Virus record (IMG/VR): IMGVR_UViG_2541047825_000011
Coordinates: 1-39,394 of that record
DNA from: a virus
Lineage: Duplodnaviria > Heunggongvirae > Uroviricota > Caudoviricetes
Reading direction: 5' to 3' (one strand)
Length of the DNA stretch: 39,394 nt
Numbering within the stretch: the first letter of the stretch is position 1; each line of letters begins with the position of its first letter. Shown piece after piece: positions 3,097-25,580 of this stretch. Under the pieces are notes generated by a model. The model ran no database searches. It saw only the letters and a program-made list of their open reading frames with translations, and was not told the DNA's origin. The position numbers and the translations under genes are program-made.

Positions 3097-3316
3097 CGTT
3101 TATTACGCATAACAATCTCCTTACTATTGAAGATTCACACATAATAAACCATTTAAGGATAATAGTTACCTCAAAACGCTGTATTTCTACCTTCTACGGC
3201 AATGAAAATTTCGTTCAGAAAATGGTCTAGTGTACCTCTCAGTCACAATTAAAGAAGAAAGAAGCCGAACTTACTTCGTAATAAGCAAGCCGGCTACTAA
3301 GATTAATCCTCAATAT

Positions 3317-6073
3317 TTAGCTACTTTCAAGCATTGCAAGACGTGATTCTATTTTTTCGATTCTTCTACGCAAATAAGCTGACTCAAGCCATAAACACTG
3401 GTCAGTACGGATACCCCACCTATTTCCAGCCTTGCAAACCAGAGTTCGCTCTTCTGTTTCGTATTCTTCTTCCATCTCAATTTCGACGCCATCCACAACT
3501 TTAGTGATCATCCTTACCGCCATCACTGGCGCGTATTTATCATCCCATTCATCGTAACAGAGAAGGCCAAATCTGGTTCCATCAATCCCATGCGCGAGGA
3601 AAGCGTCTCTCACTTGTTGTGCTATAACACCAAAATGCCAGCGGGCACCATCTCCCTTTTCCCTGACGGCATCAAGCCAGCGAAAAGCTACAATCCTGAT
3701 ATCTCCCCATGCATCCAGAATTGCATCACCTTCATAACCACGAGACATATACAAGCTGAGCTCACTTGTACTAATCGGTTCACTTTTTTCTCTACCATCT
3801 GATGTGTTTATCGAACCGTTCGCAGAATAAACCTGTGCCCATCTAAATGATGGTGCACCAAGAGATTTGCTGTTATCAATAATTGGTGAAAAATTACCTT
3901 TAATGGCAATATTTCCAGAGTCGCCGAATATATTAATAACTGCAGAGTCATCACCATGGTTTTTTACGCTTAAGTTTCTTGATGAAATATTTATATCTTT
4001 GTTATATCCACTAACATTAATCCATCTTTTACCATCAATGTGATGCCCGTAAATATTTCCGTTTGATTGTTCGTCAGGTGACTCTCTAAGAACAATAGCA
4101 TCTGCTCCAGACGACCATTGTATTTTTGTATCTGTAGGCCTCCAGTTCTTTATAATGAACGAACCATCAGTAAACTCCGTTTTTATTTGTCTATTGTCTA
4201 CAAATGCGTCTCTTGGTTTAAACTCACTTGTGTTAACGCTGCTCTGAAGATCAGAAGCAAAAAATCTAAGATTTCCTGTATAACCCTGAGTCTCGGTCAG
4301 GTTATACGCAATCATAATTCCATTTTCAAACTCAGATGATGTTATTTTAACATCACGGCAATCACCAAAAATGCAATTTCCTTTATCAAATGTTGTTTGA
4401 GCTTTGAATTTATCAAACCTTAAATTACGAACAGGGAAACCATCAACCTCTAATGCAAAGGATGCAGGAAGGCCAAAGTATTCTGATGGCTTACCTGATG
4501 TATGATCAAGAGTAGTGGCTACTGTATTCTCAAAAACAGTCCCGCTAAAATTATTACCAATTGACGGAAACCTGATTACACTTATTGTACCTTGTATTTC
4601 AGGAGAAATACCAGATAGTGTGATGTTAGTTCCATCAAATGATGCATCTGAATACGTATATACTAATTCACTGCCAGCAATTTTAAACTGTTTAACTGAA
4701 GTTATTCTCATCGACTTTTTATGTTTAAATGTCACTGAGCTTTCAGTATTACTTACAAGATCAATCTGAGGGCTATTCCTTATCGCGATCCCTGACTGGA
4801 CATAAACGTTATTAAAGTGCGTTTTTTCAGGATTTCCCTTCATTGAAAGGCTCCCGTCATTTTCTGTCAGTAGTAGTCCTTTTACCCTCCAATAGCCGAC
4901 AATCTGTACGTTATCAATAACTGAATCACAGCTATCGTATACATGCAACCCTATATCCCAGTCATCACCCAATGAATAAGAATCAGGGTTATTGTATCCT
5001 TCAATACCATTTTTACTTACCATTATTCTCAGGTTGCGTAACTGTGATGCCCTGTTGATACTAACAGCTACGCTCATGGCTTTTGGTGTAGCAGGAGTAA
5101 CACCTACAGAATCTTCATTTGTAAACTCAGTGAACTTACAAGATATCCCTTCAACAATTTTAACTGGTCTTTCATTAGAGATGTTAAAAAAATATTTGTT
5201 TTTTTCTCCATCACCAGTAAATACAAGATGGGTTCCTTTACTCCAACTTTTTAATAATCTTTCAGGCGCTGGTCTATATGTATCCCAATAATCAATGCCA
5301 TCACCAATTAATGACACTCCAGGAGGCACATCTATGTTCTTAGAAATCATCCATTTACCTGCAGGTATTCTAACGACACTTGCACCAGAATTTATCGCAT
5401 TAATTAACCATTCAGACGCATCAACTTCAAAATTTAATGCAGCATATCTTTGCTCAAACGGAACAAAATCAAGAGCGTTAACGTTATCCCGCATCTTATC
5501 CTGGAACGTTCGGTATACTGCTCCAGAACCATACTGAATAAACCAACCAAAACCACCAACAACTCCGGCGATTGCAGCATCAACATAATTACGCATTGAG
5601 CGATTATTTACAGCATCCTGCTCAAGTGATGGATCTGCAAGGTTAGAAATTCTGTTTTGCTTTGCATCGTAATATTTTGCAAGCAAAGATGGTTTCATCA
5701 ATGCACGTCTGAACCACCCAAAACATTGCTGGATCAGCATCGTCAGGTAGTCAAAAGCATCCTCATGAACTTCGGGGAAAAATTTTCCCTGATTGCGAAG
5801 ATCAGTCTCCTGCACCACATCAAGCACACGCTCTATCGTGATTCGCCAGCCAGCAGCAAGCGGCGACGGAAGAACCACTGCACCGCCACTATAAGTTCCC
5901 GCCCCTGTTACCGTATAACCAGCATCCAGCACTAGTTCTGTTACGTTACCGTTAAGGTCAGACACCTGAACAACCAGGTCGGATTTTTTGAAAATACGGA
6001 AGGTATACGGAAATGATGTCGTAACGCCGTTACCTGTGTATTCGTTGTGGTCAACTTCGGTTGAGACCGTCAT
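3317..6073 (-). CDS. Tailspike: T7 gp17-like N-terminal adaptor domain, central receptor-binding region, C-terminal S74-type intramolecular chaperone
   Basis: N-terminus EYTGNGVTTSFPYTFRIFKKSDLVVQV follows the T7 tail-fibre N-domain pattern; C-terminus SDGREK...RIEKIESRLAMLESS resembles the autoproteolytic chaperone of endosialidase-type fibres; central part is markedly AT-rich. Confidence 0.85.
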   Translation of the reverse strand: MTVSTEVDHNEYTGNGVTTSFPYTFRIFKKSDLVVQVSDLNGNVTELVLDAGYTVTGAGTYSGGAVVLPSPLAAGWRITIERVLDVVQETDLRNQGKFFPEVHEDAFDYLTMLIQQCFGWFRRALMKPSLLAKYYDAKQNRISNLADPSLEQDAVNNRSMRNYVDAAIAGVVGGFGWFIQYGSGAVYRTFQDKMRDNVNALDFVPFEQRYAALNFEVDASEWLINAINSGASVVRIPAGKWMISKNIDVPPGVSLIGDGIDYWDTYRPAPERLLKSWSKGTHLVFTGDGEKNKYFFNISNERPVKIVEGISCKFTEFTNEDSVGVTPATPKAMSVAVSINRASQLRNLRIMVSKNGIEGYNNPDSYSLGDDWDIGLHVYDSCDSVIDNVQIVGYWRVKGLLLTENDGSLSMKGNPEKTHFNNVYVQSGIAIRNSPQIDLVSNTESSVTFKHKKSMRITSVKQFKIAGSELVYTYSDASFDGTNITLSGISPEIQGTISVIRFPSIGNNFSGTVFENTVATTLDHTSGKPSEYFGLPASFALEVDGFPVRNLRFDKFKAQTTFDKGNCIFGDCRDVKITSSEFENGIMIAYNLTETQGYTGNLRFFASDLQSSVNTSEFKPRDAFVDNRQIKTEFTDGSFIIKNWRPTDTKIQWSSGADAIVLRESPDEQSNGNIYGHHIDGKRWINVSGYNKDINISSRNLSVKNHGDDSAVINIFGDSGNIAIKGNFSPIIDNSKSLGAPSFRWAQVYSANGSINTSDGREKSEPISTSELSLYMSRGYEGDAILDAWGDIRIVAFRWLDAVREKGDGARWHFGVIAQQVRDAFLAHGIDGTRFGLLCYDEWDDKYAPVMAVRMITKVVDGVEIEMEEEYETEERTLVCKAGNRWGIRTDQCLWLESAYLRRRIEKIESRLAMLESS

Positions 6074-6176
6074 GTTAAATCTCCAGATAGTCGCAGCACC
6101 CGTTGCGCCGCATATCTGGTTATTCTATTACCTGAAAAACCACATATGGATAGAAAGACTGTGAATACGAACAGAT

Positions 6177-6193
6177 ATTACCTTTCGGGTAAT
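6177..6193. promoter_or_regulatory. Operator-like palindrome ATTACC-TTTCG-GGTAAT
   Basis: Perfect 6-bp inverted arms with 5-bp spacer, 17 bp total, in the intergenic region upstream of the + strand antirepressor island. Confidence 0.6.
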
Positions 6194-6229
6194 TTGCAAA
6201 ACGTGCTGGATAGCAAACAAATTATTTGA

Positions 6230-6249
6230 TACTGTATAAATATACAGTT
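6230..6249 (+). promoter_or_regulatory. LexA (SOS) box
   Basis: TACTGTATAAATATACAGTT matches CTGT-N8-ACAG with an AT-rich spacer; about 20 bp upstream of the ATG at 6269. Confidence 0.7.
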
Positions 6250-6268
6250 ATTGCATGGAGAAGATAAG

Positions 6269-6526
6269 ATGCAGCAGTATCACTATCCACTGGAAGACGG
6301 ATTTACCGAAAGGATTCACACGCCGGGAGGCGTCAGGTCACTGGTGGAGGGATCGCACTTGATGAAATTACTCCGGGATCTCGATAAGGATGGATTTAAT
6401 GTCGATGGCCCACTTGCCGAACTGACTGCACTGATTAACTACGTCACCAGCTCACAGATGTCTATGCAGGATCTGCAAACACATCTCGACTATTGTGCCG
6501 AACAATTACGAAAACAAACCAGATAA
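6269..6526 (+). CDS. Small antirepressor-like protein, stand-alone homolog of the C-terminal domain of the adjacent BRO-N antirepressor
   Basis: ATG 6269 with GGAG 8 nt upstream (track ORF starts at TTG 6251); HTPGGVRSLVEGSHLMKLLRDLDKDGFNVDGPLAELT...QTHLDY aligns with HSPSGVLGLTENSLLMNLLNKLQEDGHDVSGAAAELT...QTHAEY of ORF 6840..7532. Confidence 0.65.
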   Translation: MQQYHYPLEDGFTERIHTPGGVRSLVEGSHLMKLLRDLDKDGFNVDGPLAELTALINYVTSSQMSMQDLQTHLDYCAEQLRKQTR

Positions 6527-6555
6527 GGTTTGCAATTACCAAGTGGAGTGCTTAT

Positions 6556-6574
6556 ATTTACCTTTGAGGTAAAT
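6556..6574. promoter_or_regulatory. Operator-like palindrome ATTTACC-TTTGA-GGTAAAT
   Basis: Perfect 7-bp arms; sits in the loop of a longer inverted repeat AAGTGGAGTGC ... GCACTCCTCTT (6541..6591). Confidence 0.6.
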
Positions 6575-6839
6575 TTACATCGCACTCCTCTTGTGCCATA
6601 GTAATCGGGCACTGGCAAAATCCAGTGCCGGGATTGGCGTCCCGAGTTACTACAGAGGCACATATGCCGCATAAGCGGTTTTTTTTATGTGTAAAGCGCA
6701 CCTATTCTATGGTGGGCTGTGTGGGGGCACCGAAAGGTGCGCCGGGTCCTTTGTAGCCGGTTACGCCAACCCTGCACAGTTCACCACCAACCGATTGGCG
6801 TCGGTAGTGGTGATTAACCTAACTACAAAGGTGATCGCC

Positions 6840-7532
6840 ATGAATACCAAACCTTCCATCTTTTCCTTTGAGTCATCCTGCCAGATCCGTATGTTCATGA
6901 TTGACGGAGAACCTTGGTTTGTCACCAAAGATGTGTGCAATGCTTTGAATATTGATGTTACACAAGCGAGAAAACTTGATAAAAAAGGCTGGAACAAAAA
7001 GGGGCTGTATTCAATACAGACCCCTGGTGGAATACAAGAACTATCCATCGTTTCAGAATCAGGTCTCTACATCCTTATTCTGCGTTGCAAAGAGGCAATG
7101 ACTGAGGGAACGAGAGCATTCAGATTTCTTGAATGGGTTACAGGTGAGGTTCTTCCTCAGATCCGCCGCACCGGAAGTTACATTAAAAACTCGCTCCCGC
7201 AGGAAGAACGCATAAAGATGGTTGCCGACCAGGTAGCCAACGCCACGGCGTCAGCAGTAATGCAGGCGATGAAGATAGAGAACAAAACCTACAGCGCCCC
7301 ACTGAAGCCCGGCTACCGTAGCCTGATTCATTCGCCGTCTGGTGTTCTCGGCCTGACGGAGAACTCACTGCTGATGAATCTGCTGAACAAGTTACAGGAA
7401 GACGGGCACGATGTATCGGGCGCGGCAGCGGAGCTGACCACCATGTTCTGCTACATCGTCGGTGTGAGCAAATGCCTGCGTGATATCCAGACGCACGCGG
7501 AGTACATCAACGACAAAGCAGGGTTCTTCTGA
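6840..7532 (+). CDS. Phage antirepressor with BRO-N type N-terminal domain
   Basis: Track ORF 6687..7532 trimmed to ATG 6840 (GGTGA upstream); N-terminal FESSCQIRMFMIDGEPWFVTKDVCNALNI ... ESGLYILILRCKEAMTEGTRAFRFLEWVTGEVLPQIR matches the Bro-N/antirepressor pattern. Confidence 0.8.
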   Translation: MNTKPSIFSFESSCQIRMFMIDGEPWFVTKDVCNALNIDVTQARKLDKKGWNKKGLYSIQTPGGIQELSIVSESGLYILILRCKEAMTEGTRAFRFLEWVTGEVLPQIRRTGSYIKNSLPQEERIKMVADQVANATASAVMQAMKIENKTYSAPLKPGYRSLIHSPSGVLGLTENSLLMNLLNKLQEDGHDVSGAAAELTTMFCYIVGVSKCLRDIQTHAEYINDKAGFF

Positions 7533-7603
7533 CGGGCGGCGGCACAGGGATGTGCCTTTAAATAATTCTGTACAGATTGCAGACTGGGGGTGAATAGCGT
7601 ACT

Positions 7604-7620
7604 ATTACCTCACGGGTGAT
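7604..7620. promoter_or_regulatory. Operator-like palindrome ATTACC-TCACG-GGTGAT (one mismatch)
   Basis: Same architecture as the other sites; upstream of the orphan gene 7761..8396. Confidence 0.5.
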
Positions 7621-7656
7621 CCATAGCGATTAGGCACCGATACAGGAGGAGCCCAC

Positions 7657-7689
7657 ATGAGAAAATTTGACGAGTACGAAGGCGTTTAA
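7657..7689 (+). CDS. Possible 10-codon leader ORF (MRKFDEYEGV)
   Basis: ATG 7 nt downstream of a perfect AGGAGG; lies between two operator-like sites; may be regulatory rather than a protein. Confidence 0.2.
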   Translation: MRKFDEYEGV

Positions 7690-7703
7690 CATTCGGATAG
7701 TTC

Positions 7704-7722
7704 ATTTACCCTAATGGTAAAT
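7704..7722. promoter_or_regulatory. Operator-like palindrome ATTTACC-CTAAT-GGTAAAT
   Basis: Perfect 7-bp arms, about 40 bp upstream of ATG 7761. Confidence 0.6.
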
Positions 7723-7760
7723 CCCGCTTAAAGAAGCATCTATATATTATGAGGTGATGT

Positions 7761-8396
7761 ATGCCACAACAACTGCTGAATCCGGCAAAGGTAACTGAGG
7801 TTTTCGCTCATCTGAACGAAACTCCAGACAACCGCGCCCTGTATTCAGAGTTAGTGAACGGCAACGATGTCACATCTGATGTCAAAGGCGTTTCTCTGGC
7901 TCCTGGATACCGCGTTGTCCGTGTAGACGATCGTAAGAAAGGCGAGATTCCACAGGCGCACTTTGAACTGTCATTGATAAATGACCTCACCGAAGAGGTA
8001 GTGTATTACAATCGTGTCATTATCCAGCCTGACAGCTATCTTAACTGCCGTCCTGTCACGCAGATATTGGTATGGAGAACCCAGAAGCCTAAGCATCGTG
8101 CTGTGCTTCATGATTTCGCCGGCATCATCTTCATGAACTACCTCTTGGAACGGTACGATATCATCGTGTCAGATCGCAACCAGACTCATGAAGGCATGTC
8201 GTTCTGGCAGGCTCGCATGTATGACGCACTGGAACTTGGCCTCCACCTCTATGGTTACGACATGATGACATGCGAGCTGATAGAGATGAATAACGAGGAA
8301 GAGCTTGAGAAAGGTGAAACCTGGTTGTGGGGTGATGCGGAAAACTTCCAAAACAGATTGGCCATAATTTCAAAGCATAAGCTGCCAATAAAATAG
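7761..8396 (+). CDS. Orphan protein of unknown function in the accessory island (211 aa)
   Basis: ATG with GAGGTGA upstream; no TM segment and no motif I recognise; own operator-flanked upstream region and a strong terminator. Confidence 0.7.
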   Translation: MPQQLLNPAKVTEVFAHLNETPDNRALYSELVNGNDVTSDVKGVSLAPGYRVVRVDDRKKGEIPQAHFELSLINDLTEEVVYYNRVIIQPDSYLNCRPVTQILVWRTQKPKHRAVLHDFAGIIFMNYLLERYDIIVSDRNQTHEGMSFWQARMYDALELGLHLYGYDMMTCELIEMNNEEELEKGETWLWGDAENFQNRLAIISKHKLPIK

Positions 8397-8403
8397 TTCT
8401 TTA

Positions 8404-8426
8404 AGCCCGCGACGCGGGCTTTTTTG
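8404..8426 (+). terminator. Rho-independent terminator of the + strand island
   Basis: AGCCCGC-gac-GCGGGCT followed by TTTTTTG. Confidence 0.8.
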
Positions 8427-8463
8427 TGTCTGCGGATTCCCGCCCGGGCGGCGGTGGCATTCG

Positions 8464-8490
8464 TTAAAAACAAGGCCGCGAAAGCGGCCT
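8464..8490 (-). terminator. Rho-independent terminator of the leftward virion operon
   Basis: AGGCCGC-gaaa-GCGGCCT hairpin with T-run on the minus strand, directly after the lipoprotein gene. Confidence 0.65.
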
Positions 8491-8928: not shown

Positions 8929-11403
8929 TTATTGCGGAGTGACATCCTGAGGTCGCCACCAGTATGTCTGGTTAAACTCTTTCTTTGAACGTTGCTCCAT
9001 TTTACGCAAATAGCCTGGTGAAAAATACTCCTGCATCTGGTTAAAGATCATGTGATCGAGAGCCGCCTTTAAGTACCAGAGATTCGCACCTGGCATCAGA
9101 CCTTTCCCCAGCTTAACCAGATCACCACCAGTCTGCTCATTCTTCCCTTCCACAGCATTTAACGGTATGCCCTGAGCAATCTTCACTACGTCATCAACCA
9201 GACCAGCTACCGGGCCAAGCATCGACGCCAACGCGCCGCTTCCGTACCTGGTGTGGTCAGAGAAAAGAAAATCACCATACAACCCTGCACCACCACCTTT
9301 TAAAAATGCATTTATCCAGAATTTAACCATGTTGTCACCGGTCATTTCTTTTGGATTTCTCCCATTAATAAGATCAGTAATCTGCATGGAAAGAGCACCA
9401 AGCATGGTTGTGCTTGCTAAAAACGTTGCTATATATGCTGCACGCCCACCAGCAGACGGCATCCCCATAGCTCTATGCCAGTGACGCATAACTACCGAGA
9501 TAGGGAACGATTTAAACAGGAAAACACTTCTCGTTAATTCACCTTTCCATGTTCCACGCTGAAGACCAGACCCTACGAACATCTGTTCACGTGCGCCCGG
9601 TGTAATAACAGCCATATCAACTTCTTCAGTTACGGCACCGAGCAGTTTACGCATTGCCTCAAATTTCACGCGTTCAGGCTCACCAAGATGTTTAACTGCT
9701 GAATCAGGGATACGCATAATGCTTTCCGGTGTCAGCATCGTATTATTACCGTTCCCCCAGTCCTCCTGTTGCGCCAGCTTCCATACGCTCCAGTCTGTGT
9801 CAGTAATCCCTTTGCTTTTCAGGATACGAAAATCAGAGTCATCGAGGCTACGAAGGTCTGGTGTCCGTGACACTACTTCTCCCAGGCTTCCCATCATGGT
9901 TACGCCATAGGCGCGCTTGTGCGCATCTGACCATGCTGTAAGCCCACTGGCACGCATTACCGCCGTTGCCGCCCAACGAGACACAGACGGCCCCATATTA
10001 TCCATCGCCCAGCGGTTAACGCTGCCAAGTAGAGATTCCATCGCCAGGCCAGCGCGGCGCGCCCGCGCAAGCTCAGTACGGTTCGTTGGGTCCATAGCTT
10101 CAAGCTGGTTGCGAAATAACTGGTTCATTGGAAGGTTGGTAACCTTCGCAGACAGATACATGGTTCCAAGATCAGAGAACGATGACAGCAACGCGGATCC
10201 GAGTCTGCTGGCAACCAGCCAGTTGCGGATATTGTCAGACCATCGCGCGATGTGCGGATTCGCTACAGGCTGTGTTTTTCCGGAAATAAAGTTGTACAAG
10301 TTCTCTGTTTTGTTCGCCAGACGCTCGACGCTACCGGTTTTACTCGGGTTAGCTGTTGCCGTTTCTGCCTTAACCTGATCAAGAAGAGAGCGGAAAACAT
10401 GATCGGGGTTTGGGCCATATGTTTCCACCAGCGCAATATCTTTACTGATACCTTCCAGGTGACCGACCATGATTTCCCATAGAGAGCGATCGCCATAAAG
10501 TTGCTGATATTGCAGATAGGAATCTGCATCTTTGAAATGTATCTGTCGTGATGCATTACCACGGTTAGCACGTGCGCCGGAAATTCGCATTCCGGTATCA
10601 GTAAGCTTATTCAGCCCACCAGTAGCGATCGTGTTATAAGCCTCTCCAAGAAATTCAGACAACTCGGCATCGTTCATCAGTTGTCCATCGGCTCGGGTAT
10701 AATATTTGCGATCCAGCTTACCTATAACATCGCTAACCCACTTATCCTTTGATACCGCCCCAACCTTTTCCATAGAATGATGTTGAGGGATCCCCCAGTT
10801 TTCGAGATAGCCAATGTCACCACCAGCATCATTAAACCGGCGGCGCAGTAGCTCTGTCACTTCTCTCCACGCCTTAGCACCTTTTCTTGCTTTAGCATTG
10901 CCAGTATTTTGCCCTCGCATTTCATATACCAGATCACGCACGCCCGCTTCATCTTCAAACAGGCCAAAAAAGCGAGGATCAACTGCTTCAAATGCCTCCT
11001 GCAATTGACTCAATGCATAATCACGGGTGGCTTTTGTTCTGGATTCAACAGAGAGGAAATTAGATTTACCGTCTGCATTAAAAGCTATAGTACGGTTAAG
11101 AGCGCCAAGTTTCCCATCAGCCCCTTGATAGCTATTGATAAATTTATCCAATCTCTGACGCGCGGCTATAGTGAGAGCCACACGACGTTTCTTTAATGCC
11201 GCTTCTCGCTGTAATTCTTCAGATGCCAATTGTGCTGCTCGATATAGCCGCTCTGATTCGGAAAGTTGTCGCCACGACATCGGGTCATCACGAGCAATGG
11301 AGCGCATATTTCGATAAATGCGGTCTTCAATGTTCTGTATTTCTCGCGCCGTTAACATGCGCTGCGCCGCCTGCTGGACAGCTTGTATACATTCCTGTCT
11401 CAT
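8929..11403 (-). CDS. Internal virion (ejection) protein, large; T7 gp16-like position
   Basis: 824 aa; last large ORF of the virion operon; assignment by size and synteny only. Confidence 0.6.
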   Translation of the reverse strand: MRQECIQAVQQAAQRMLTAREIQNIEDRIYRNMRSIARDDPMSWRQLSESERLYRAAQLASEELQREAALKKRRVALTIAARQRLDKFINSYQGADGKLGALNRTIAFNADGKSNFLSVESRTKATRDYALSQLQEAFEAVDPRFFGLFEDEAGVRDLVYEMRGQNTGNAKARKGAKAWREVTELLRRRFNDAGGDIGYLENWGIPQHHSMEKVGAVSKDKWVSDVIGKLDRKYYTRADGQLMNDAELSEFLGEAYNTIATGGLNKLTDTGMRISGARANRGNASRQIHFKDADSYLQYQQLYGDRSLWEIMVGHLEGISKDIALVETYGPNPDHVFRSLLDQVKAETATANPSKTGSVERLANKTENLYNFISGKTQPVANPHIARWSDNIRNWLVASRLGSALLSSFSDLGTMYLSAKVTNLPMNQLFRNQLEAMDPTNRTELARARRAGLAMESLLGSVNRWAMDNMGPSVSRWAATAVMRASGLTAWSDAHKRAYGVTMMGSLGEVVSRTPDLRSLDDSDFRILKSKGITDTDWSVWKLAQQEDWGNGNNTMLTPESIMRIPDSAVKHLGEPERVKFEAMRKLLGAVTEEVDMAVITPGAREQMFVGSGLQRGTWKGELTRSVFLFKSFPISVVMRHWHRAMGMPSAGGRAAYIATFLASTTMLGALSMQITDLINGRNPKEMTGDNMVKFWINAFLKGGGAGLYGDFLFSDHTRYGSGALASMLGPVAGLVDDVVKIAQGIPLNAVEGKNEQTGGDLVKLGKGLMPGANLWYLKAALDHMIFNQMQEYFSPGYLRKMEQRSKKEFNQTYWWRPQDVTPQ

Positions 11404-11408
11404 TTAAT

Positions 11409-13211
11409 TTAACCTCTCAAGAAACACGCCACAGCGACATCAAACAGGCTGGAATCCTGTATTGCCTGCTCACTTTCCCTGTTCGCTTCATCCAGTACTT
11501 CACGCGCACTGCGCGATTGTGGATTACCATCATCATCCAGCACGGTGATTATCATGTCAGGAGATTCAAGCAGCGAGTCTTCAGCTATACGCAGATCAAT
11601 ATCTCCTGCCGGATCTGCCATCATTTTTTGTTCTGTCTGTTGCAATATCTTACCGGGCTCAAAAGGAGCTACTTCGTCTGGCGTCCTGACCTCTGCTGTT
11701 TTATAGAATGAAACAGCCTGAGCATTAAGTTCACTTTCTGCCTGCTGTCGTCGTGCCAGTTCTGCTCGAGCTTCAAAAAACTGACCGCCAGGCTCGTGCG
11801 GTGCCAACGCGTTACGGGAAAACTCCAGGCGTTCTTGTGCCTGCCGGATTCGTTGATCAATATCGCGAAGTCTGGCCTGTTTATCTGATCGAGCACGAGA
11901 CAAAGCTTTACCGCTACCGGTTGGCTCTTCTGCAAGAATTTGTGCACGCTGTTCAGTGAGATTTTCAATAATTCGTTGGCTATTAGCGATTTCAGACTGG
12001 TAAACCTGTCTATCTCCACGCGGCAAAAGCTGCGCGGCCTGTTCTTCAAGCAACCGATTTTCTATAGCGCGCGCCGTTATTCCATCATCTACAGATGACA
12101 GAGCCTCATTAACTGCCTGAGACAGCAGACTCTTGCGCCCAGGAATTTCACTGAAAGATGCAGACTCAACAATGCTGGCAACGTCTACAGGTCTCCCCTG
12201 GCTAACATCAGACATAGCTTTTCGCAGAGCCTGAATGTGAGAATTACGCGAAAGCACGTTGATCGGCACGCCAGGAGCAATATCAATTTCAGCATGATGA
12301 GCGGCATTCGCCGCCAGTGCAGCATCGATATCAACTGGTGAAAAATTTGGTGTGCTTGTAGACTCGCCGCGAGAGTTAATAAATCTGCCGACACCACCAA
12401 ACGCCACCCCAAGAACAGCATCAATAGCAATTGCCTGTCGATCCAACACATCATACTGGTTAGCCATTTCGCTATAGCCACCATCACGAAGCGTTTTTGC
12501 AGTAAGCCCACGCTGTGCCATACCGAACGCAATATTTGTACCTGCGGCATAGGCAATATCTGGCGTTGCACGTACTGCTGTTGCTGCGGCGCGTCGCACT
12601 GAACTCTCACCCGTCCGTGCAAGCTGAGCCGCCACACCTTCCGCCAGCGCACCACCAGCACGTAACCCGAGGCTCATAGGGATCAGTGTTCCGGCACCAG
12701 CAGTAATGCCCTGCACTAATCCCGCTTCCTGCGCCGTCCTGAAATCAACACCCTGTGCTGTCAGCCGTTCAAACTCAGAAAAACCCTGTAGCGAAGTTAC
12801 CGCCGCTGCACCTCCGACAGGACCACCGAGCGTTGTACCGACAACAGCCTGCCCGCCCATATCGAACAACCCATAAAGAACCTGCCCGGCGGTTCCGGTT
12901 GTCGCGGCATCAGGCGTCAGCCGCTTAACCTGCTGCTCTGCTAGTTTTCTCTGCTCAGCAATGTATGAAACTGAAGTGTCATTGAGCGAGGTGTTTTCGT
13001 TAACAAACTGAGCAATCGGGGATACGATTTTATCCATCCCTGCCCATAGCAACTGATCTGGCTTTGCCACCAGCCCGGAGTACAAACCAGACAATGCCGC
13101 TCCTACAGCATTGTCGAAAAAACCAACATCGCTGTTAAAGCCAACTGGATTTGATGCTGCTTCGTCAAGCTGCTGATTCTGGTTTACTGGATTAAGGCCA
13201 AAGTAACTCAT
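11409..13211 (-). CDS. Internal virion (ejection) protein; T7 gp16-like position
   Basis: 600 aa, Ala/Gly-rich; contiguous with flanking virion genes; function from synteny. Confidence 0.55.
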   Translation of the reverse strand: MSYFGLNPVNQNQQLDEAASNPVGFNSDVGFFDNAVGAALSGLYSGLVAKPDQLLWAGMDKIVSPIAQFVNENTSLNDTSVSYIAEQRKLAEQQVKRLTPDAATTGTAGQVLYGLFDMGGQAVVGTTLGGPVGGAAAVTSLQGFSEFERLTAQGVDFRTAQEAGLVQGITAGAGTLIPMSLGLRAGGALAEGVAAQLARTGESSVRRAAATAVRATPDIAYAAGTNIAFGMAQRGLTAKTLRDGGYSEMANQYDVLDRQAIAIDAVLGVAFGGVGRFINSRGESTSTPNFSPVDIDAALAANAAHHAEIDIAPGVPINVLSRNSHIQALRKAMSDVSQGRPVDVASIVESASFSEIPGRKSLLSQAVNEALSSVDDGITARAIENRLLEEQAAQLLPRGDRQVYQSEIANSQRIIENLTEQRAQILAEEPTGSGKALSRARSDKQARLRDIDQRIRQAQERLEFSRNALAPHEPGGQFFEARAELARRQQAESELNAQAVSFYKTAEVRTPDEVAPFEPGKILQQTEQKMMADPAGDIDLRIAEDSLLESPDMIITVLDDDGNPQSRSAREVLDEANRESEQAIQDSSLFDVAVACFLRG

Positions 13212-15721
13212 TGCGGAATATCTCCGGAGAATCTCTGACGCTTCTGTGTCAGATCAAGAACAACAGGAGAACCATCATCTTTCAGCAGATAACCAGTACC
13301 AAGTTTCACCAGGTACTGACTATCGCCGTAACTTTGCAAACCATACTGACCAGGCGGTGTTTTTATCCCGGTGCCGACAACTTGTTCATTCCAAGCCTGA
13401 TTAACCTGCTTATCGAATTGCTCTGCAGACATTCCCCACGGCAAAAGGACATTCCCCATTCCGTTATAGTCATGCACGCCACCTGTAGCTACGTTAACAG
13501 CCTGTTTCCAGATATCAGTGTCAATTTCGCCTGATATCACGCCTTTTTTCGCCATCACACCAGCGTAATAGTCCTTTGCGATCTCGTATGCCATTGATGC
13601 CCCCTGAGCATCACCAGCAAATGCATCCTTCACCATGTCAGAAAACTCAAGGCGAAGATCAGCATCTTTAGGCATCGGAATACCTTTCGCATCATCAGTA
13701 CCTTTACGAGCCGCCGCGCCAGCAAGAATTGTCTGCGCAGCGGTTTCAGGAGACACGGAAACATCCGGATTAAACCAGTTTTTTTCTGCCAAAATACCAC
13801 CAGGCTTGTCCATCAGTATCCCGGCAACGGCAGCAGATGGAGCGTTGGCACTGATCTGCTGTAGTGCTGACATATACACCTGCCCACCACCAGTGCTCTG
13901 CCTGATGGTATCGAGATATGCTGCCTGTTGGGAAACTGGAGCATCACGAAAGAAAACACCGATCTGATTGGCCTCGTCTTTGGAAAAGAACGTCAGTGGA
14001 GTGCCATATGACTTAGCAAGATCACTGACCTGAGCGGCACGCAAGGCAACGCTCTGTCCAAAGTTATCCTTATTGCTCATGTCGATAGGCTTTGCCTGTC
14101 CGGAGGCAAGAGAGAACTGCACAGGATCCGACTGCCGCTGCTTTATCACCTGATTTGCAGCCGAAACAACGTTGTCATAAAGAGCTGCGCGAGACGCATA
14201 ACCCTCCCCTGTCTCACCGGTATCCGGGCGTAATTGCTCAACATATGCTGTAATGCTGCTTGTCGGCATGTTGCGGAAAGAGCCTATATACTGTCCGGCG
14301 ATTTGCGTATTTCTGAACTCGGTATATCGCAGGTTTCCTTCTCTGACTCCATAAGCTGCAATAAAATCAGCCTCACCAGGTGGGTTAGGAAATTCAACGC
14401 CACGCATATACGCAGCTGTCGCATCGCGAACCTGGCTGTCAATCATCGTTTTATATTCAGCCTGCTGCTGCCGACGCAGTTGATCAGCCTGTCGCATAAA
14501 ACTTGCCTGCGCCTCAGGAGATGCCGCATCGAATGCTGCATTACCGGTATAGCGTTTGGTGTTGGTTGGAATTGTTGATAAACCAAGTGCTGCACTGACA
14601 CCAGCAGTTAACTGCTGATCACTGTATGGCTGGCTACCGTTCTCATGATGGATAATGGCTGCACAAAGCGCCTTCAGGGTATCAGGATTAGATGCATCGA
14701 GAGGCTCATCAGCAGAAACGCCAAGTTGTTCGCACACTGCTTTGATATACGACATAGTGTCATTTTTATCAGTAGGCGGTGCCCAGCGATTAATTATCTC
14801 GCTGACGGTATCAATACCCTGCCTCTGATACGACATCAGGTTCCGCCCTAATGCACGAATCCCGTGTTCAGGTGTTTCGAATTTAGCAAATCGACCATCA
14901 TCACCGGTCTGGCCTACCCACGGATTAGTTTTGCTGTATTCGAGATTTCCTGGGTTATTGTTGCGTATGCCGCGGGCACGCTCGGAAGAGTCACTATCTG
15001 CTACAGCACGGCGAGCTCCAGCAGCAGTATCACTTAACTCGCCATTACTTTGGATGAATGCGGTCGCATTGTTTGCCGACCACTGGGACAATGCGGCATC
15101 AGCAACCTTCTCTTTAAACTCGATTTTCTTGGCCTGTATTTGCTCGTCGCTCCAGCCATGCGCAATGCCGTAATCCTCAATTTGCTGGAAAGTTTGCTTA
15201 TTAGCCAATACGTATGCGGCGTTGTCGCCATACAATGCTGCGGCATTTTTACCATTGTTCAGCAGCGTCGCCTGAAACTGGCCTTCTTCGTAGGCATTTA
15301 TTTGCCCTATCTCGTGCCGCCCGGCCTGCGTAGTGAACTGAATACGCTGCTGCTGCGCCTGCTGCATGAAAGCATTACGAGCTTGTTCATCCGGCAGCGA
15401 CATAGCCAGTTGCTCGACCTGGGCATCAAACTGCTGCGTATACTCCTGACCTTTTCCAATAGCATTTTTCCCTTTCAAGTTAAGCAAACCTGTTTCAGGG
15501 TTATTCAGCAGATCGCTACTTATCTGGCTTAAGCTAAGAGAAGCATCCTGAGCCATAGCAACATTCGCACGCTGTTTTGCCTGCGCAATAATACCTGCAT
15601 ATTGCTCTGCAACATCGCCAAGTACATCACCGACATTTGGTGTCTGAAACGATGAGAATCCCTGCGTCGAAATCCCTCTGCTCTGAACCTGACGTCCCGA
15701 TGTTGTTGGTACAACTGGCAT
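13208..15721 (-). CDS. Internal virion protein; T7 gp15-like position
   Basis: 837 aa; contains a conserved-looking block RNNNPGNLEYS...RWAPPTDKNDT of unknown function; overlaps the downstream gene start. Confidence 0.55.
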   Translation of the reverse strand: MPVVPTTSGRQVQSRGISTQGFSSFQTPNVGDVLGDVAEQYAGIIAQAKQRANVAMAQDASLSLSQISSDLLNNPETGLLNLKGKNAIGKGQEYTQQFDAQVEQLAMSLPDEQARNAFMQQAQQQRIQFTTQAGRHEIGQINAYEEGQFQATLLNNGKNAAALYGDNAAYVLANKQTFQQIEDYGIAHGWSDEQIQAKKIEFKEKVADAALSQWSANNATAFIQSNGELSDTAAGARRAVADSDSSERARGIRNNNPGNLEYSKTNPWVGQTGDDGRFAKFETPEHGIRALGRNLMSYQRQGIDTVSEIINRWAPPTDKNDTMSYIKAVCEQLGVSADEPLDASNPDTLKALCAAIIHHENGSQPYSDQQLTAGVSAALGLSTIPTNTKRYTGNAAFDAASPEAQASFMRQADQLRRQQQAEYKTMIDSQVRDATAAYMRGVEFPNPPGEADFIAAYGVREGNLRYTEFRNTQIAGQYIGSFRNMPTSSITAYVEQLRPDTGETGEGYASRAALYDNVVSAANQVIKQRQSDPVQFSLASGQAKPIDMSNKDNFGQSVALRAAQVSDLAKSYGTPLTFFSKDEANQIGVFFRDAPVSQQAAYLDTIRQSTGGGQVYMSALQQISANAPSAAVAGILMDKPGGILAEKNWFNPDVSVSPETAAQTILAGAAARKGTDDAKGIPMPKDADLRLEFSDMVKDAFAGDAQGASMAYEIAKDYYAGVMAKKGVISGEIDTDIWKQAVNVATGGVHDYNGMGNVLLPWGMSAEQFDKQVNQAWNEQVVGTGIKTPPGQYGLQSYGDSQYLVKLGTGYLLKDDGSPVVLDLTQKRQRFSGDIPQ

Positions 15722-15733
15722 CTTATTATCCCC

Positions 15734-16273
15734 TTATCGACCGGTTGGAGTGCCAACAGCAGCAGAAATCGGCGCAGCCTTCTGAGAGAACGGGCTCCAC
15801 GTTCCGCCGCCCATCTGGTATGCACCGTATGCTTTTAGTGGTGCCGTTAACAAAGTGCTGGTCATCGATGATTTAGCAGCCGACTGAGCAGCAGCCCCCT
15901 GTGCCTGAGCATTCATTCCCTGAACCTGATACCCATATGCCTCACGCTGAGCATTATTCACTGTCGTTAACGCATCAAGAGTACCGAACTGAGCATTATC
16001 CGCAAAAACGTCAAGAGCTGTTCCGCTACTTAATTCCGCACCGGTAGCCCCCATAGTGGCCGCCGTAGTGCCTGAGCGTTGACGCATTTCACGACGACGC
16101 TGATCCGCTTCAATATTCCCACGATTGATTGAATCCTGTGCCTGAGCTTCAGCAATTTCAGCATTCCGATCAGCTATGGCTGACTGGTATTTTGCCTGCT
16201 TGCTCTGGCTGTACATTGACGCGGCTGTGGATGCCACTGTGACGGCAACCAAAGCGATGGCTGGGTTACACAT
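15734..16273 (-). CDS. Internal virion protein; T7 gp14-like position
   Basis: 179 aa; N-terminal hydrophobic helix then Ala/Gln-rich region. Confidence 0.5.
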   Translation of the reverse strand: MCNPAIALVAVTVASTAASMYSQSKQAKYQSAIADRNAEIAEAQAQDSINRGNIEADQRRREMRQRSGTTAATMGATGAELSSGTALDVFADNAQFGTLDALTTVNNAQREAYGYQVQGMNAQAQGAAAQSAAKSSMTSTLLTAPLKAYGAYQMGGGTWSPFSQKAAPISAAVGTPTGR

Positions 16274-16737
16274 TATTTTCTCTCCATGTGAAATCTGTGG
16301 AAATTAAGACCAAGAGCACCATAAGGCGCGGCTTCTTCAAGCCTGAATCCAAGCCAGTGGAGCCATGCTTTGGCAACATGGTTTCGCTCGTCGACGTAGT
16401 TTTCCAGGCGCGGATAAACTGCCAGCATCTGCTGCAATACAGGTCGGCAGTGGCGAAGAAATGTCTTCTGATATTTTTCAATACGGCTTGTCCCGACCAG
16501 CCAGGGCGTACCATTGCCACCAATCATTGACGCCGGAGATACACCAAACATGGTTACCAGTTCTCCGTTCGCGAACCCTGACCAGGCCATAGTCGCAGTG
16601 CGCAGACCAACGCGCAGCGCATCTTCGGTAGTCATCAGCGATACCGCATATAGTTCGTCAATATCAGCCTGACGAACATCCGGCAAAATCATCTGAAGAT
16701 GCTCTTCGGTAGCGGGAATAATTTGAATATAGATCAT
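16273..16737 (-). CDS. Virion assembly protein; T7 gp13-like position
   Basis: 154 aa; start and stop coupled to flanking virion genes. Confidence 0.45.
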   Translation of the reverse strand: MIYIQIIPATEEHLQMILPDVRQADIDELYAVSLMTTEDALRVGLRTATMAWSGFANGELVTMFGVSPASMIGGNGTPWLVGTSRIEKYQKTFLRHCRPVLQQMLAVYPRLENYVDERNHVAKAWLHWLGFRLEEAAPYGALGLNFHRFHMERK

Positions 16738-19208
16738 CAGAATCCCCCAACAGTAAGGCGAGGAATAACGGCAAGAACAGACAGCGGCAACGGGTCAAGC
16801 TGACGGATTCTTACACGTCCGTTTTTGCCCCAGTTACTGTCCAGTTTCACTTCTACTTTTCCGGTAGCGTCATCAACAGGATCATCGTAGAACTCGAATT
16901 CACGCTGTGGATATTCGTACCATTTACCGCCGGGCGTAGTCGCCCAGATGCCGCGACTGGCATTCACAACCAGAGTAACGGAGGGGATCACCTGTTTTTT
17001 GTCCAGCAGCGTTTCCTGTCCGTTAATGTTGATATCCAGTGTTTCGAATTCAGCAGTTATTGGCAGGCCGATGTGCACTACAGCCCCCGGAGATTCCAGC
17101 GTGACGGCACCTCCGGAAACCACTTTCTGTGGTTCCACGTTCGCATCAGAGAGAATGTTTACGGTCTGGCCTTCAAGATGAGACAGGCCTCCAAATGTCC
17201 GGCGCGCCATCTGCCAGTTCGTGGTGGCCACATTCCTGAGGGATGGCGGGACGTTCCTGTTAGCACGAACCACTACAGCGGTATTGCTGGTTACAGAAAT
17301 AATGTCGCAACGTAATTCTTTTGACACTTCATCGCCAGTATCGGGAACAGTTCCGGTATAAGGGAACTGTAGTTGCGCACCGACATCACTACTGGTGAAG
17401 TACGCACCACCAGAAACACTGATTGTATATTCCGCGCGGTAATCCCATTCGCCAGAACCACCAGTGATTGTCATCGTTCTGTCAGACGTATTTCTTCCAT
17501 CATAGCTAAGGCCAGAATCAACAAAGAAAGCGTCTTCATCGCTGGTAAATAAACGGCTGGACAGCCGTTCGATGTATCTCACTGTTTGCCCGTTAACGGT
17601 TCGGTTAACGACGAAATACACCGCATCTTCATTGCCTTCGCTGATACTGCATGTGCTTTCATATTTTCCGGTACTGGATTGTGGTGCCCATGCAAAAACC
17701 TGCTGATCACGCAAATAGGTCATCACCAGTAATTTACCGTCATCACGAATGCAGAAGGCACTGGAGTAAGGGACAATCGAGAAGCACCAGTCAACAATGC
17801 TGTGCTTCTGAAAAAGATGATTGGCAAGGATGGTCAGGTCGTTCCCCTGATAGCCGTCAACATCGAATGAGTAGGCCAGATCACGGACAACGCTGCCTTT
17901 CTCCTGGACGAACAGAGCAATATTCGCCACAGCAATTGGTGGGACGTTGCTTGAGCCATTTGATCCCTGAGAGCTGAATGCAAATGATGATGGGGTTAAC
18001 ACTTTGTTCTGGTCGCCAGTGATGACGTACTCACCTCCGGAAGTCAGCGCCACCAGCGAACCAACATCAATCAGGTGGCGGATCTCATTAACCTGACGCC
18101 CGGCATAGGTGTAGATAATTCTGTCGTCATCCTGCGTAGGATTGCTTTTGCCAAAATCCTTATAATCCCCGGTACGGCTGGCCCAGATAGTCTGAGGGAA
18201 CGCGGTCGATGCGGCGAAGTAAAGACGTTGTTGATAATAAACAACAGTGCCAGGATAACCATTAACACTGTTCCAGGCATATTTAGCCCATTTATAGCTG
18301 GCATTATCCTCGCCAACTACCTGCGAAGGGATATAGGAAATCACCTCGGCAGTTGCAGTAGTTCCATTTGCAGCAGTGATACGGGCAATGCCAAAACCAC
18401 TGTGCAGATACTCCCACTCAATGCCGGTATCATCATCACCGGATCCGCCCCAGCCATCCCATGATGTGCCTTCTGTATGCGAAGGGCGCAAAGTACCTGT
18501 TTTGCCTGCTGTAACGGCGCGATAGTAGTTACTGTCTGCACGGCGAATATCGCCAATCGACGTACTCTTACTGGTTTCCCATACCGGCACTGAATCCACT
18601 GCAGGCTGTTCCAGATAGAACAATTTGCCTACCTGCTCCGCGCCAAAAATAGAGGCGCTTGCCGTTAACGTAATTGTCCCAGTGCTGGCGCTGGCATAAA
18701 CCGTCACTGACTCGTCAATATTGATATCTTCAAATGGCCCGTTCTTCGTTACCACATCAACCAGTTGCCAGTTATCATGCGCATAGCGGCGCAACTCTTT
18801 CGGCGGGTATGCCGGGTGAACCAGCGTAAGCACGTCGGCGCTTTGCGTAAATTTAATTCGGAACAGATCAGCTTCAGTATATGGCGTGGCAATTTCATAA
18901 ATAACATTGCTGCTGTTCAGCACCAACGCACCATCTTTGATAACGCGCATGTACTGGTGTCCGAACTCCAGAACATAGGTCTGAACAGTCGAGAACTGGA
19001 ACGGGATCAGGCGGCATTTCCGATTTGGGTATTTGGCGGCACCAACAAAACGCGTACCAGGTCGATTCTCAACGCCGCCATACTGCCGCACGATAAAGTT
19101 ATCGCACTTGCGCAATGCCACCTGGTACTTCGCCATGTCGATACGACCGTACAACGACGGTCCAATCTCACCACCGGCAAAGCTGGGCTGGATCCAACTG
19201 ATAGCCAT
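16737..19208 (-). CDS. Tail tubular protein B-like (nozzle)
   Basis: 823 aa; N-terminal SFAGGEIGPSLYGRID...ENRPGTRFVG parallels the T7 gp12 N-terminal pattern; follows the tubular A-like gene. Confidence 0.65.
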   Translation of the reverse strand: MAISWIQPSFAGGEIGPSLYGRIDMAKYQVALRKCDNFIVRQYGGVENRPGTRFVGAAKYPNRKCRLIPFQFSTVQTYVLEFGHQYMRVIKDGALVLNSSNVIYEIATPYTEADLFRIKFTQSADVLTLVHPAYPPKELRRYAHDNWQLVDVVTKNGPFEDINIDESVTVYASASTGTITLTASASIFGAEQVGKLFYLEQPAVDSVPVWETSKSTSIGDIRRADSNYYRAVTAGKTGTLRPSHTEGTSWDGWGGSGDDDTGIEWEYLHSGFGIARITAANGTTATAEVISYIPSQVVGEDNASYKWAKYAWNSVNGYPGTVVYYQQRLYFAASTAFPQTIWASRTGDYKDFGKSNPTQDDDRIIYTYAGRQVNEIRHLIDVGSLVALTSGGEYVITGDQNKVLTPSSFAFSSQGSNGSSNVPPIAVANIALFVQEKGSVVRDLAYSFDVDGYQGNDLTILANHLFQKHSIVDWCFSIVPYSSAFCIRDDGKLLVMTYLRDQQVFAWAPQSSTGKYESTCSISEGNEDAVYFVVNRTVNGQTVRYIERLSSRLFTSDEDAFFVDSGLSYDGRNTSDRTMTITGGSGEWDYRAEYTISVSGGAYFTSSDVGAQLQFPYTGTVPDTGDEVSKELRCDIISVTSNTAVVVRANRNVPPSLRNVATTNWQMARRTFGGLSHLEGQTVNILSDANVEPQKVVSGGAVTLESPGAVVHIGLPITAEFETLDININGQETLLDKKQVIPSVTLVVNASRGIWATTPGGKWYEYPQREFEFYDDPVDDATGKVEVKLDSNWGKNGRVRIRQLDPLPLSVLAVIPRLTVGGF

Positions 19209-20970: not shown

Positions 20971-21021
20971 CTTCTTTCTCCATTAGTGGGCCTGTTGCGG
21001 CCCACAGGTTAATAACAGGCG

Positions 21022-25502: not shown

Positions 25503-25580
25503 ACAGCAGGACGCCATTGCGATGACTTCATGCTGTAAACCCGTACAGCCACGGAAGGCAAAACTCATTGCTTCCAGTTC

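Follow-up and report, generated by a model that had tools for sequence, protein, structure and literature searches.

The host range of a phage is decided by its tailspike modules, and swaps of these modules retarget phages, tailocins and engineered therapeutics. For the genus Uetakevirus, the modular design of the receptor-binding proteins (RBPs), with an anchor and a receptor-binding domain (RBD), is already published, the anchor of phiV10 measuring about 205 residues (Pas et al. 2023, PMC10408124). For epsilon15 gp20, a beta-sandwich has been described along with an esterase 'petal', in a text that was found to name no chaperone (bioRxiv 10.64898/2026.07.31.742079).

Here we analysed a stretch of 39,394 nucleotides (hereafter the window) whose virion genes are 96-97% identical at the nucleotide level to those of phiv142-3 and phiV10. 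The minus-strand open reading frame at 3317-6073 starts with ATG, encodes a protein of 918 residues (ORF list and translation) and is the tailspike of an epsilon15/phiV10-like (Uetakevirus) temperate podovirus of E. coli: PHROG 1171 'tail spike protein' matches the product over its full length (E = 4.5e-299), and protein cluster P0001 (654 members) is 99% identical to it. Because one PHROG family spans the entire minus-strand frame, the small plus-strand ORFs within it (e.g. 3590-3802 and 4992-5291) were taken as antisense by-products. The tailspikes of the same genus (epsilon15 gp20, phiV10 gp25 and phiv142-3 Orf6) have anchors 68-94% identical to this one with a boundary at about residues 203-205, and their genes occupy the same position, between the conserved antirepressor module and the lysis genes, but they differ in the receptor-binding core and in the C-terminus, which here is an S74 chaperone. 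Moreover, phiV10 has oac downstream, whereas an O-antigen-modification gene is absent downstream of the tailspike here. The gene is a clear example of a known process and not a new kind of system; it shows at base-pair resolution how a module was exchanged between two genera of temperate phages, both junctions falling in conserved motifs. As a whole, it is best explained (probability about 0.85) as the phage's single tailspike, a three-parent mosaic with three modules: an anchor, a beta-helix and a chaperone predicted to cleave itself off. Its features are as follows.

3251..3294, minus strand: terminator-like hairpin with a trailing U-rich tract, 3' of the tailspike stop
3317..6073, minus strand: tailspike coding sequence (PHROG 1171; P0001), stop codon at 3317-3319
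3320..3799, minus strand: intramolecular chaperone domain, residues 759-918, 18.5 kDa (Pfam Peptidase_S74, 3gw6)
3785-3787, minus strand: codon of Lys763, of the Ser758/Lys763 dyad
3800..3802, minus strand: codon of Ser758, predicted nucleophile, with the predicted autocleavage site between Ser758 and Asp759 (aligned with the endoNF motif)
3821..5275, minus strand: AT-rich right-handed beta-helix, receptor-binding and probable depolymerase body plus distal stalk, residues 267-751
5276..5281, minus strand: left crossover interval, gene nucleotides 793-798, residues 265-266
5279..5464, minus strand: N-terminal cap and first beta-helix rungs, residues 204-265, still from the Uetakevirus-type parent
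5465..6073, minus strand: anchor module, residues 1-203, phage-binding domain of the epsilon15 gp20/phiV10 type, folded like the T7 gp17 N-domain
6081..6084, minus strand: Shine-Dalgarno GGAG, 7 nt 5' of the ATG, read from the sequence

The Shine-Dalgarno element is unchanged in phiV10 and phiv142-3. At the other end of the gene, the hairpin (RNA fold -22.3 kcal/mol, z = -2.2) is a putative terminator.

Anchor, beta-helix and chaperone modules

The anchor, a beta-sandwich (residues 8-85) plus a helix (99-125), is 71.5% identical to epsilon15 gp20, 68% to phiV10 and 94% to ZX5 (over residues 1-165/203). In BLAST searches, many E. coli prophage tailspikes are 94-97% identical over residues 1-203 and then suddenly lose similarity; the anchor thus combines high identity to the genus with an exchange boundary at residue 203, compared with about residue 205. 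The initial annotation had assigned about 150 N-terminal residues to a T7 gp17-type domain. This length is superseded by the recombination boundary at residue 203, and the assignment itself holds for the fold and for the Pfam matches of relatives, but not for the protein's own score, as Pfam Phage_T7_tail (PF03906) stays below its gathering score of 25.2 bits, the full protein reaching 13.6 bits and residues 1-215 alone 18.5 bits. Among proteins with the same N-domain, 16 of 25 match this family at E<=0.1 (best E = 9.5e-11). A Foldseek search with the AF2 model of residues 1-215 (mean pLDDT 65.5, low TM-scores) retrieved T7 gp17 (7boz, 7ey9 and 9jz0; E 4e-4 to 5e-3, prob 1.0), superposed in one case at 2.3 A across 82 columns, and all 13 matches at E<=1e-3 were fibre or tail-complex entries from short-tailed phages. 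The anchor therefore shares the fold of the T7 gp17 N-domain, although its sequence is too diverged for the Pfam threshold. Closer in sequence is the fibre N-terminus in PDB 28lx/8ck1 (E = 1.4e-30); the fibre N-domain of the Cobetia phage Carin-1 (8ck1) is 47% identical to the anchor, and its adaptor and nozzle also have homologues in the window. In contrast to the T7 gp17 and Carin-1 N-domains, the anchor here reaches residue 203, with extra helices that are poorly modelled.

16737-19208, minus strand: nozzle, 823 residues (PDB 8ck1_A tail nozzle, E = 1.5e-218)
19208-19813, minus strand: adaptor/connector, 201 residues (PDB 8ck1_E connector, E = 3.2e-26)

The PHROG labels of adaptor and nozzle are 'tail protein' / 'tail tubular protein'. 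These matches to 8ck1, together with a T7_gp14 Pfam match and a T7-type portal in the window, lend indirect support to the T7-type tubular A/B genes that had been invoked earlier, and accompany the T7-like fold of the anchor with T7-like partners. Going by PDB entry names and sequence homology, adaptor and nozzle are the predicted docking partners of the anchor, which would fix six tailspike trimers at the adaptor-nozzle junction of the tail.

The AF2 model of the central part (pLDDT 88.3) is a right-handed parallel beta-helix of the pectin-lyase fold. Neither Pfam Pect-lyase_RHGA_epim (PF12708) nor any other beta-helix family matches the tailspike at E<=1; within alignment A1, of 25 proteins that share the tailspike's N-domain, 12 do match PF12708. 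No solved structure is closer to the core than 18% identity. Ten acidic residues (D370, D373, E404, D406, E416, E542, D544, D563, D574 and E583) are each kept by 85% or more of 40 homologues, and the beta-helix most probably cleaves, as a hydrolase, lyase or esterase, E. coli surface polysaccharide, which its trimer (residues ~204-757) would bind, thereby setting the host range.

The C-terminal sequence SDGREK...RIEKIESRLAMLESS begins at Ser758, and its reading as an S74-type chaperone, proposed earlier on inspection, is upheld by Pfam and PDB searches. Pfam Peptidase_S74 (PF13884) scores 42.7 bits over residues 758-829 (cut-off 22, E = 7.1e-11), and the C-terminal domain of endoNF from phage K1F (PDB 3gw6) matches at E = 4.5e-34 over residues 709-917; further PDB matches are 9vvr, 3gud (GA-1 neck appendage) and 4uw8 (T5 pb1), the latter two homologous chaperone domains alongside that of endoNF. 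The motif S758-D-G-R-E-K763 lines up with the cleavage motif of 3gw6 and 9vvr, so that a Ser-Lys dyad is in place, akin to the Ser-x4-Lys dyad of endoNF (Ser911/Lys916). Both proteins also have a stalk segment before the chaperone (here matching positions 118-160 of Pfam End_tail_spike, E = 0.0038), but the catalytic domain preceding it is a beta-helix here versus an endosialidase beta-propeller in endoNF, and Pfam and structure searches detected no sialidase domain in the tailspike. As predicted from domain and dyad, the chaperone would nucleate trimerisation and then cleave itself off between Ser758 and Asp759 by means of Ser758/Lys763; the predicted products are an 18.5 kDa fragment and, after chaperone release following trimer assembly, a mature subunit of 83.9 kDa.

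Base composition and parentage

Windowed GC calculation confirmed the AT-rich centre that had been noted by eye at 3800-5400: this stretch has a GC content of 0.364, as opposed to a mean of 0.498 (sd 0.019, minimum 0.444) in 1500-bp windows off the gene, and the ten lowest-GC 1500-bp windows of the entire 39,394 nucleotides all start at 3701-4151. GC is 0.489 over the whole window, 0.400 in the tailspike gene and 0.363 in the core (residues 204-757, 3803-5464). Compared to a set of 30 other genes in the window, the core is markedly lower in GC (0.363 versus 0.496, z = -4.6) and GC3 (0.258 versus 0.493 +/- 0.063, z = -3.7; the lowest other gene has 0.382) while GC2 is near-normal (z = -0.3), and the shift therefore falls mostly on synonymous sites. 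A GC-normal homologue (76% amino acid identity) is the 911-residue tailspike (L012) of a Uetakevirus-type prophage of strain O15_8X, the same phage type, whose RBD has a GC content of about 0.50 at 66-78% nucleotide identity. One domain family is thus seen in AT-rich and GC-normal versions, which shows that the AT-richness of the core is inherited history, without functional need.

The parents can be told apart along the gene. Up to residue 265, it is 96-100% identical at the nucleotide level to L012, and in a three-way alignment all informative sites to nucleotide 792 favour the Uetakevirus-type parent. The last such site (nucleotide 792) and the first P22-type site (nucleotide 799), at window positions 5282 and 5275, respectively, enclose the left crossover within the conserved motif GIDYWDTYRPAPERL. 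Residues 267-751 are 99% identical at the nucleotide level to tailspikes of P22-like (Lederbergvirus-type) prophages, including WP_213666884 of O15_8X, and few residues differ between the window core and the P22-type core; however, the P22-like tailspikes begin with a head-binding domain of the P22 type (PF09008), and their S74 chaperone is a different one (38-52% nucleotide identity). The peptides at the two junctions, GIDYWDTYRP and FRWAQVYSA, are both conserved motifs. Of 5426 E. coli genomes, 29 carry the same core, with 13 full-cover matches annotated 'tail fiber domain-containing protein', in all of which the Uetakevirus-type junction was confirmed, and 16 matches at 89% cover annotated 'phage tailspike protein'; one genome of each annotation class was inspected, and the 89%-cover one has a P22-like context. 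At a nucleotide identity of at least 99.6%, the chaperone block is confined to the same 13 genomes, and one further match (90.7%) lies in a P22-type tailspike. The gene is a recent recombinant, Uetakevirus-type to residue 265, with a P22-shared beta-helix at 267-751 and a chaperone from a third lineage; the horizontal acquisition of the core that had been argued from composition is hereby borne out, with the crossover now mapped. Homologues follow P22 head-binding, Tail_spike_N, T7-tail and other N-termini, and include tailspikes of a Justusliebigvirus (60% amino acid identity), where they belong to a set of multiple tailspikes, and of a Vectrevirus (45%).

Since two further tailspikes of Uetakevirus also have low GC in their receptor-binding parts (phiv142-3, 0.364; phiV10, 0.418), so that the pattern recurs and is not unique to this gene, the AT-richness could also be read as a by-product of amino acid composition, or of a functional or translational constraint on beta-helix tailspikes, rather than as a foreign trace. 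We regard this as very improbable: GC2 is unchanged where GC3 drops, the 76% identical homologue L012 has an RBD of normal GC in the same phage type, the AT-rich block recurs at 99% identity in a different phage genus with a sharp crossover at its end, and the Justusliebigvirus homologue is located in a genome region that itself has a GC content of 0.375. Nearly as improbable is that the S74-like domain stays uncleaved and is kept as a distal knob on the mature spike. Some S74-containing fibres do lack experimental tests, but the spacing of Ser758 and Lys763 equals that of the endoNF dyad, S758 (95%) and D759 (93%) are near-invariant in 40 homologues, as is Lys763 among homologues, and the chaperone was swapped as a unit with its boundary just upstream of the cleavage site.

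Serogroups of the carriers and the receptor

The serogroups O5, O15, O25 and O83 include common extraintestinal pathogenic types, and all four are found among the typed carriers of the core at a nucleotide identity of at least 98%: O15 (three), O83 (three), O25 (one) and O5 (one) gene clusters, counts that cover eight of the 29 carriers. Specificity for O15, suggested by the strain name O15_8X, was rejected on account of the O83, O25 and O5 carriers; O15 wzy occurs in 100 genomes, and three of the 29 core carriers are among the 96 matches listed.

Two receptors come into consideration. The beta-helix may target a single serogroup-specific O-antigen, as in phiV10 (O157) or epsilon15, in which case the lysogens would differ in O type through O-antigen switching after lysogeny or retargeting by point mutation, and we give this somewhat less than even odds. 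Such specificity holds as a rule among RBPs of Uetakevirus and Lederbergvirus (PMC10408124), the window core departs from the P22-type one at few residues, and O15_8X harbours prophages of two genera, each with an RBD of this family, suggesting matching to the host. Against it, carriers span at least four O serogroups among eight typed, whereas in a serogroup-specific RBP subtype at least 90% of host serogroups are identical (PMC10408124). The same spread speaks for a 'multi-serogroup' RBP that recognises a glycan common to several serogroups (K capsule, another exopolysaccharide or a core structure), a pattern also seen in phiv142-3 and other RBPs, for which the K antigen was proposed (PMC10408124), and in keeping with the homologues within the multiple tailspikes of a Justusliebigvirus. 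We hold this second receptor to be slightly less likely than the first; prophage carriage is no proof that an RBD still matches its host, and the typing covers eight of 29 carriers. More doubtful still is that the core is a broad-range depolymerase for a glycan common to O5, O15, O25 and O83, mobile among Uetakevirus-like and P22-like prophages and, distantly, lytic phages. Should the core bind a glycan that several O serogroups have in common, it might be of use as a depolymerase or retargeting module; otherwise, the gene is a well-documented instance of biology already known.

Upstream region and plus-strand module

6074..6268: divergent intergenic control region containing a pair of LexA-box-like palindromes (CTGT-N8-ACAG) at 6159-6174 and 6232-6247
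6251..8421, plus strand: module between tailspike and virion operon (PHROG 450, 130 and 1349)
6251-6526, plus strand: epsilon15 gp19-like small protein (PHROG assignment)
6687-7532, plus strand: Ant/Bro antirepressor (PHROG assignment)
7761-8396, plus strand: protein without assigned function, an ORF in the antirepressor module
8403-8421, plus strand: terminator, convergent with 8473-8490
8473-8490, minus strand: terminator, convergent with 8403-8421

A sigma-70 promoter for the tailspike was rejected on a consensus scan, which gave no minus-strand match in 6074-6250, total matches being below the shuffle expectation; transcription may start at an unrecognised promoter or come from late-operon read-through antisense to the plus-strand module. 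The tailspike is indeed set apart from the virion operon, as had been noted, but what had been called an accessory island is a conserved antirepressor module with LexA-box-like sites: phiV10 and phiv142-3 share the layout of 6251-8421, and 6074-6268 is 97% conserved with both. The CTGT-N8-ACAG pattern occurs six times in the window, compared with 0.53 sites expected, and two of these lie in 6074-6268.

The modular tailspike and its AT-rich core

The minus-strand open reading frame at 3317–6073, the coordinates given in the initial annotation, encodes a protein of 918 aa, which PHROG 1171 ('tail spike protein') covers end to end (E=4.5e-299). It is a typical modular Uetakevirus tailspike, of an architecture already described in the literature, and public databases hold a 99% identical tailspike (a cluster of 654 sequences) and phage Phi05_1387 B at 98.7% nucleotide identity. 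The earlier observation and its interpretation are essentially correct, and what we add is the exact three-parent map, a GC-normal sister allele and a mixed serogroup distribution. The AT-rich central region noticed at the outset proved real by windowed GC: the core (aa 204–757, window 3803–5464) has a GC content of 0.363 vs 0.495 in the remaining window, and of all 1500-bp windows across the 39 kb, the ten lowest in GC lie within this AT-rich zone. Compared to 30 other genes, the core has a deficit of z=-4.6 in GC, of z=-3.7 in GC3 (0.258 vs 0.493) and of z=-2.8 in GC1, but of only z=-0.3 in GC2; the shift is thus largely at synonymous positions, and second-position, amino-acid-driven composition does not explain it.

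When the core DNA (window 3803–5464) was searched at ≥98% identity among 5426 complete E. coli genomes, it was found in 29, under two annotations. In 13 genomes the match spans the whole query within a 'tail fiber domain-containing protein', with the same anchor–core junction as in the window in all 13, whereas the other 16 matches cover only window 3822–5300 and lie in a 'phage tailspike protein'. The one copy inspected among these 16, that of E. coli O15_8X, has Arc and Ant genes upstream and belongs to a P22-like prophage located at argW/intS. It is 97–100% identical to the window gene in every 90-nt block over aa 271–750 and 38–57% elsewhere, while the 911-aa tailspike of the Uetakevirus-type prophage in the same strain is 96–100% identical at the nucleotide level up to aa ~265 and 41–80% beyond, with an RBD of normal GC (~0.50). 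The two O15_8X tailspikes are two apparent parents of the window gene. In a three-way alignment, all informative sites up to nt 792 go with the Uetakevirus-type parent and all from nt 799 with the P22-type parent; because of this switch, the alignment places the crossover at gene nt 793–798 (window 5276–5281, aa 265–266), within GIDYWDTYRPAPERL. The right junction falls at aa ~751–755 (FRWAQVYSA), directly ahead of the predicted cleavage site. At ≥99.6% identity the chaperone block beyond it recurs in the same 13 genomes only; one P22-type tailspike matches it at 90.7%.

In O15_8X (NZ_CM182542.1) the prophages belong to two genera, the Uetakevirus-type one next to yfgI and the P22-like one at argW; their tailspikes, at 3120–5855 of stretch L012 (GC-normal) and 5584–8058 of stretch L003 (AT-rich), share one RBD family. 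Four other carriers (E57, Combat2C1, OZ040490 and ECE170) also have the core in two places.

In wider homologues the N-terminus ahead of the core is of the P22 head-binding, Tail_spike_N, T7-tail or another type; among them are a Justusliebigvirus tailspike (60% aa identity, local GC 0.375–0.40) and one of a Vectrevirus (45%). The AT-rich version therefore gives the impression of a lineage with a past in phages of lower GC, brought by recombination into a homologous gene of normal GC. RBD GC is also low in phiv142-3 (0.364) and phiV10 (0.418), as would fit a common pool of such modules, on a comparison of three genes of the genus.

Anchor, beta-helix and chaperone

Over aa 1–165 the tailspike shares 71.5% identity with epsilon15 gp20 and 68% with the tail fibre of phiV10. 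Many prophage tailspikes of E. coli match aa 1–203 at 92–97% identity and diverge completely beyond, in agreement with the 205-aa phiV10 anchor used by Pas et al. (2023; PMC10408124). The T7 gp17 N-domain pattern proposed initially stands as a fold but not as a Pfam assignment. Phage_T7_tail scored below its cut-off of 25.2 bits on the tailspike (13.6 bits; 18.5 bits for the isolated domain), although 16 of 25 proteins with the same N-domain match it (best E=9.5e-11). The AF2 model of the N-domain (mean pLDDT 65.5; ~90 in the beta-sandwich of aa 8–85) has as its top Foldseek matches the fibre N-domains of Carin-1 (47% identity, E=3.9e-11), PhiM1, LME-1, P-SCSP1u, Kp9, HRP29 and T7 gp17 (7boz, 7ey9, 9jz0). 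We conclude that the domain works like the T7 gp17 N-domain and is a remote homologue of it; the curated Pfam test places it outside PF03906, and the Uetakevirus anchor is the family to which it properly belongs.

The central domain (aa 196–760) is confidently modelled by AF2 as a right-handed parallel beta-helix (pLDDT 88.3). Ten of its acidic residues are kept in ≥85% of 40 homologues, a conservation compatible with the core as a putative enzyme. The O serogroups of core carriers, read from annotated wzx/wzy genes, were O15 (n=3), O83 (n=3), O5 (n=1) and O25 (n=1, a Uetakevirus-type carrier). Judged by the serogroup-consistency criterion of Pas et al., this mix of O15, O83, O25 and O5 carriers speaks against specificity for one O-antigen. 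The spread resembles their 'multi-serogroup' RBPs, for which a K antigen has been proposed (PMC10408124).

For the C-terminus, the initial annotation had proposed a self-cleaving S74-type chaperone. The domain itself was recovered by Pfam (Peptidase_S74 above threshold, E=7.1e-11) and by alignment of aa 709–917 with the endoNF chaperone domain (3gw6, E=4.5e-34), where S758-DGRE-K763 sits on the cleavage motif; further matches are to the E1004 tailspike (9vvr), GA-1 (3gud) and T5 pb1 (4uw8). S758 and D759 are nearly invariant among homologues (n=40). Autocleavage at the chaperone we infer from what is established for the S74 family; the predicted products would be an 83.9-kDa mature chain and an 18.5-kDa fragment.

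Control region and flanks of the tailspike gene

A divergent intergenic region of 195 bp, 97% conserved with phiV10 and phiv142-3, precedes the tailspike. The surroundings comprise:

3097–3316: 220 bp from the tailspike to the holin/lysis genes, with a terminator-like hairpin after the tailspike stop codon and no O-antigen-modification gene
6159–6174: LexA-box-like CTGT-N8-ACAG palindrome
6232–6247: second such palindrome, near-consensus (CTGTATAAATATACAG), its CTGT-N8-ACAG kept in phiV10 and phiv142-3
Beyond the intergenic region, plus strand: genes for an epsilon15 gp19-like protein, an Ant/Bro antirepressor and an uncharacterised protein
8403–8490: convergent terminators closing these genes

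The separate upstream region was correctly recognised, but the plus-strand genes, initially called an accessory island, are not variable and form a conserved lysogeny-control module. Lying between the tailspike and this Ant/Bro module, the palindromes suggest SOS control of the antirepressor, whose induction would then resemble that in coliphage 186 and the Gifsy phages. CTGT-N8-ACAG occurs 6 times in the window vs 0.53 expected from shuffles; the further matches (5052–5067, 20992–21007, 25533–25548 and 29579–29594) mostly have GC-rich spacers unlike LexA boxes. A sigma-70 consensus scan found no tailspike promoter. Unlike the window, phiV10 carries the O-acetyltransferase gene oac (9637–10653 of stretch L001) between tailspike and lysis genes.

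Virion genes and genome ends

The window represents a temperate podovirus of the epsilon15/phiV10 type (genus Uetakevirus), and its virion genes are 96–97% identical at the nucleotide level to those of phiv142-3, HEMP4 and phiV10. On the minus strand, a T7-type portal (PF12236) and the capsid (PF20911) are followed by tail proteins of 201 and 823 aa, two small internal virion proteins (one of the T7_gp14 family) and three large virion proteins. The 201-aa protein matches the 'Connector Protein' chain (E=3.2e-26) and the 823-aa protein (window 16737–19208) the 'Tail Nozzle' chain (E=1.5e-218) of 8ck1, the cryo-EM tail of Cobetia phage Carin-1. To speak of T7-type tubular A/B genes was therefore fair for this adaptor–nozzle pair, on the basis of 8ck1 homology and gene order rather than of a direct T7 gp11/gp12 match. 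Since the nozzle of so distant a phage, from a marine Cobetia, is very close, the tail machinery of the group seems conserved over distant hosts. The PHROGs matched by an 837-aa virion protein (window 13208–15721) carry annotations as ejection proteins of transglycosylase/endolysin type; taken with the T7_gp14-family protein at 15734–16273, they point to a T7-like ejectosome.

The first base of the window is that of the ATG of a gene for a DNA methyltransferase (PHROG 1277); an uncharacterised plus-strand gene (PHROG 1094) comes next, and at its other end the window stops where a minus-strand integrase starts (window ends 1–1163 and 38144–39394). The first 1163 bp, matched in TL-2011b and in neither phiv142-3 nor phiV10, give the appearance of a moron that went in between Rz and int of a complete, circularly permuted genome.
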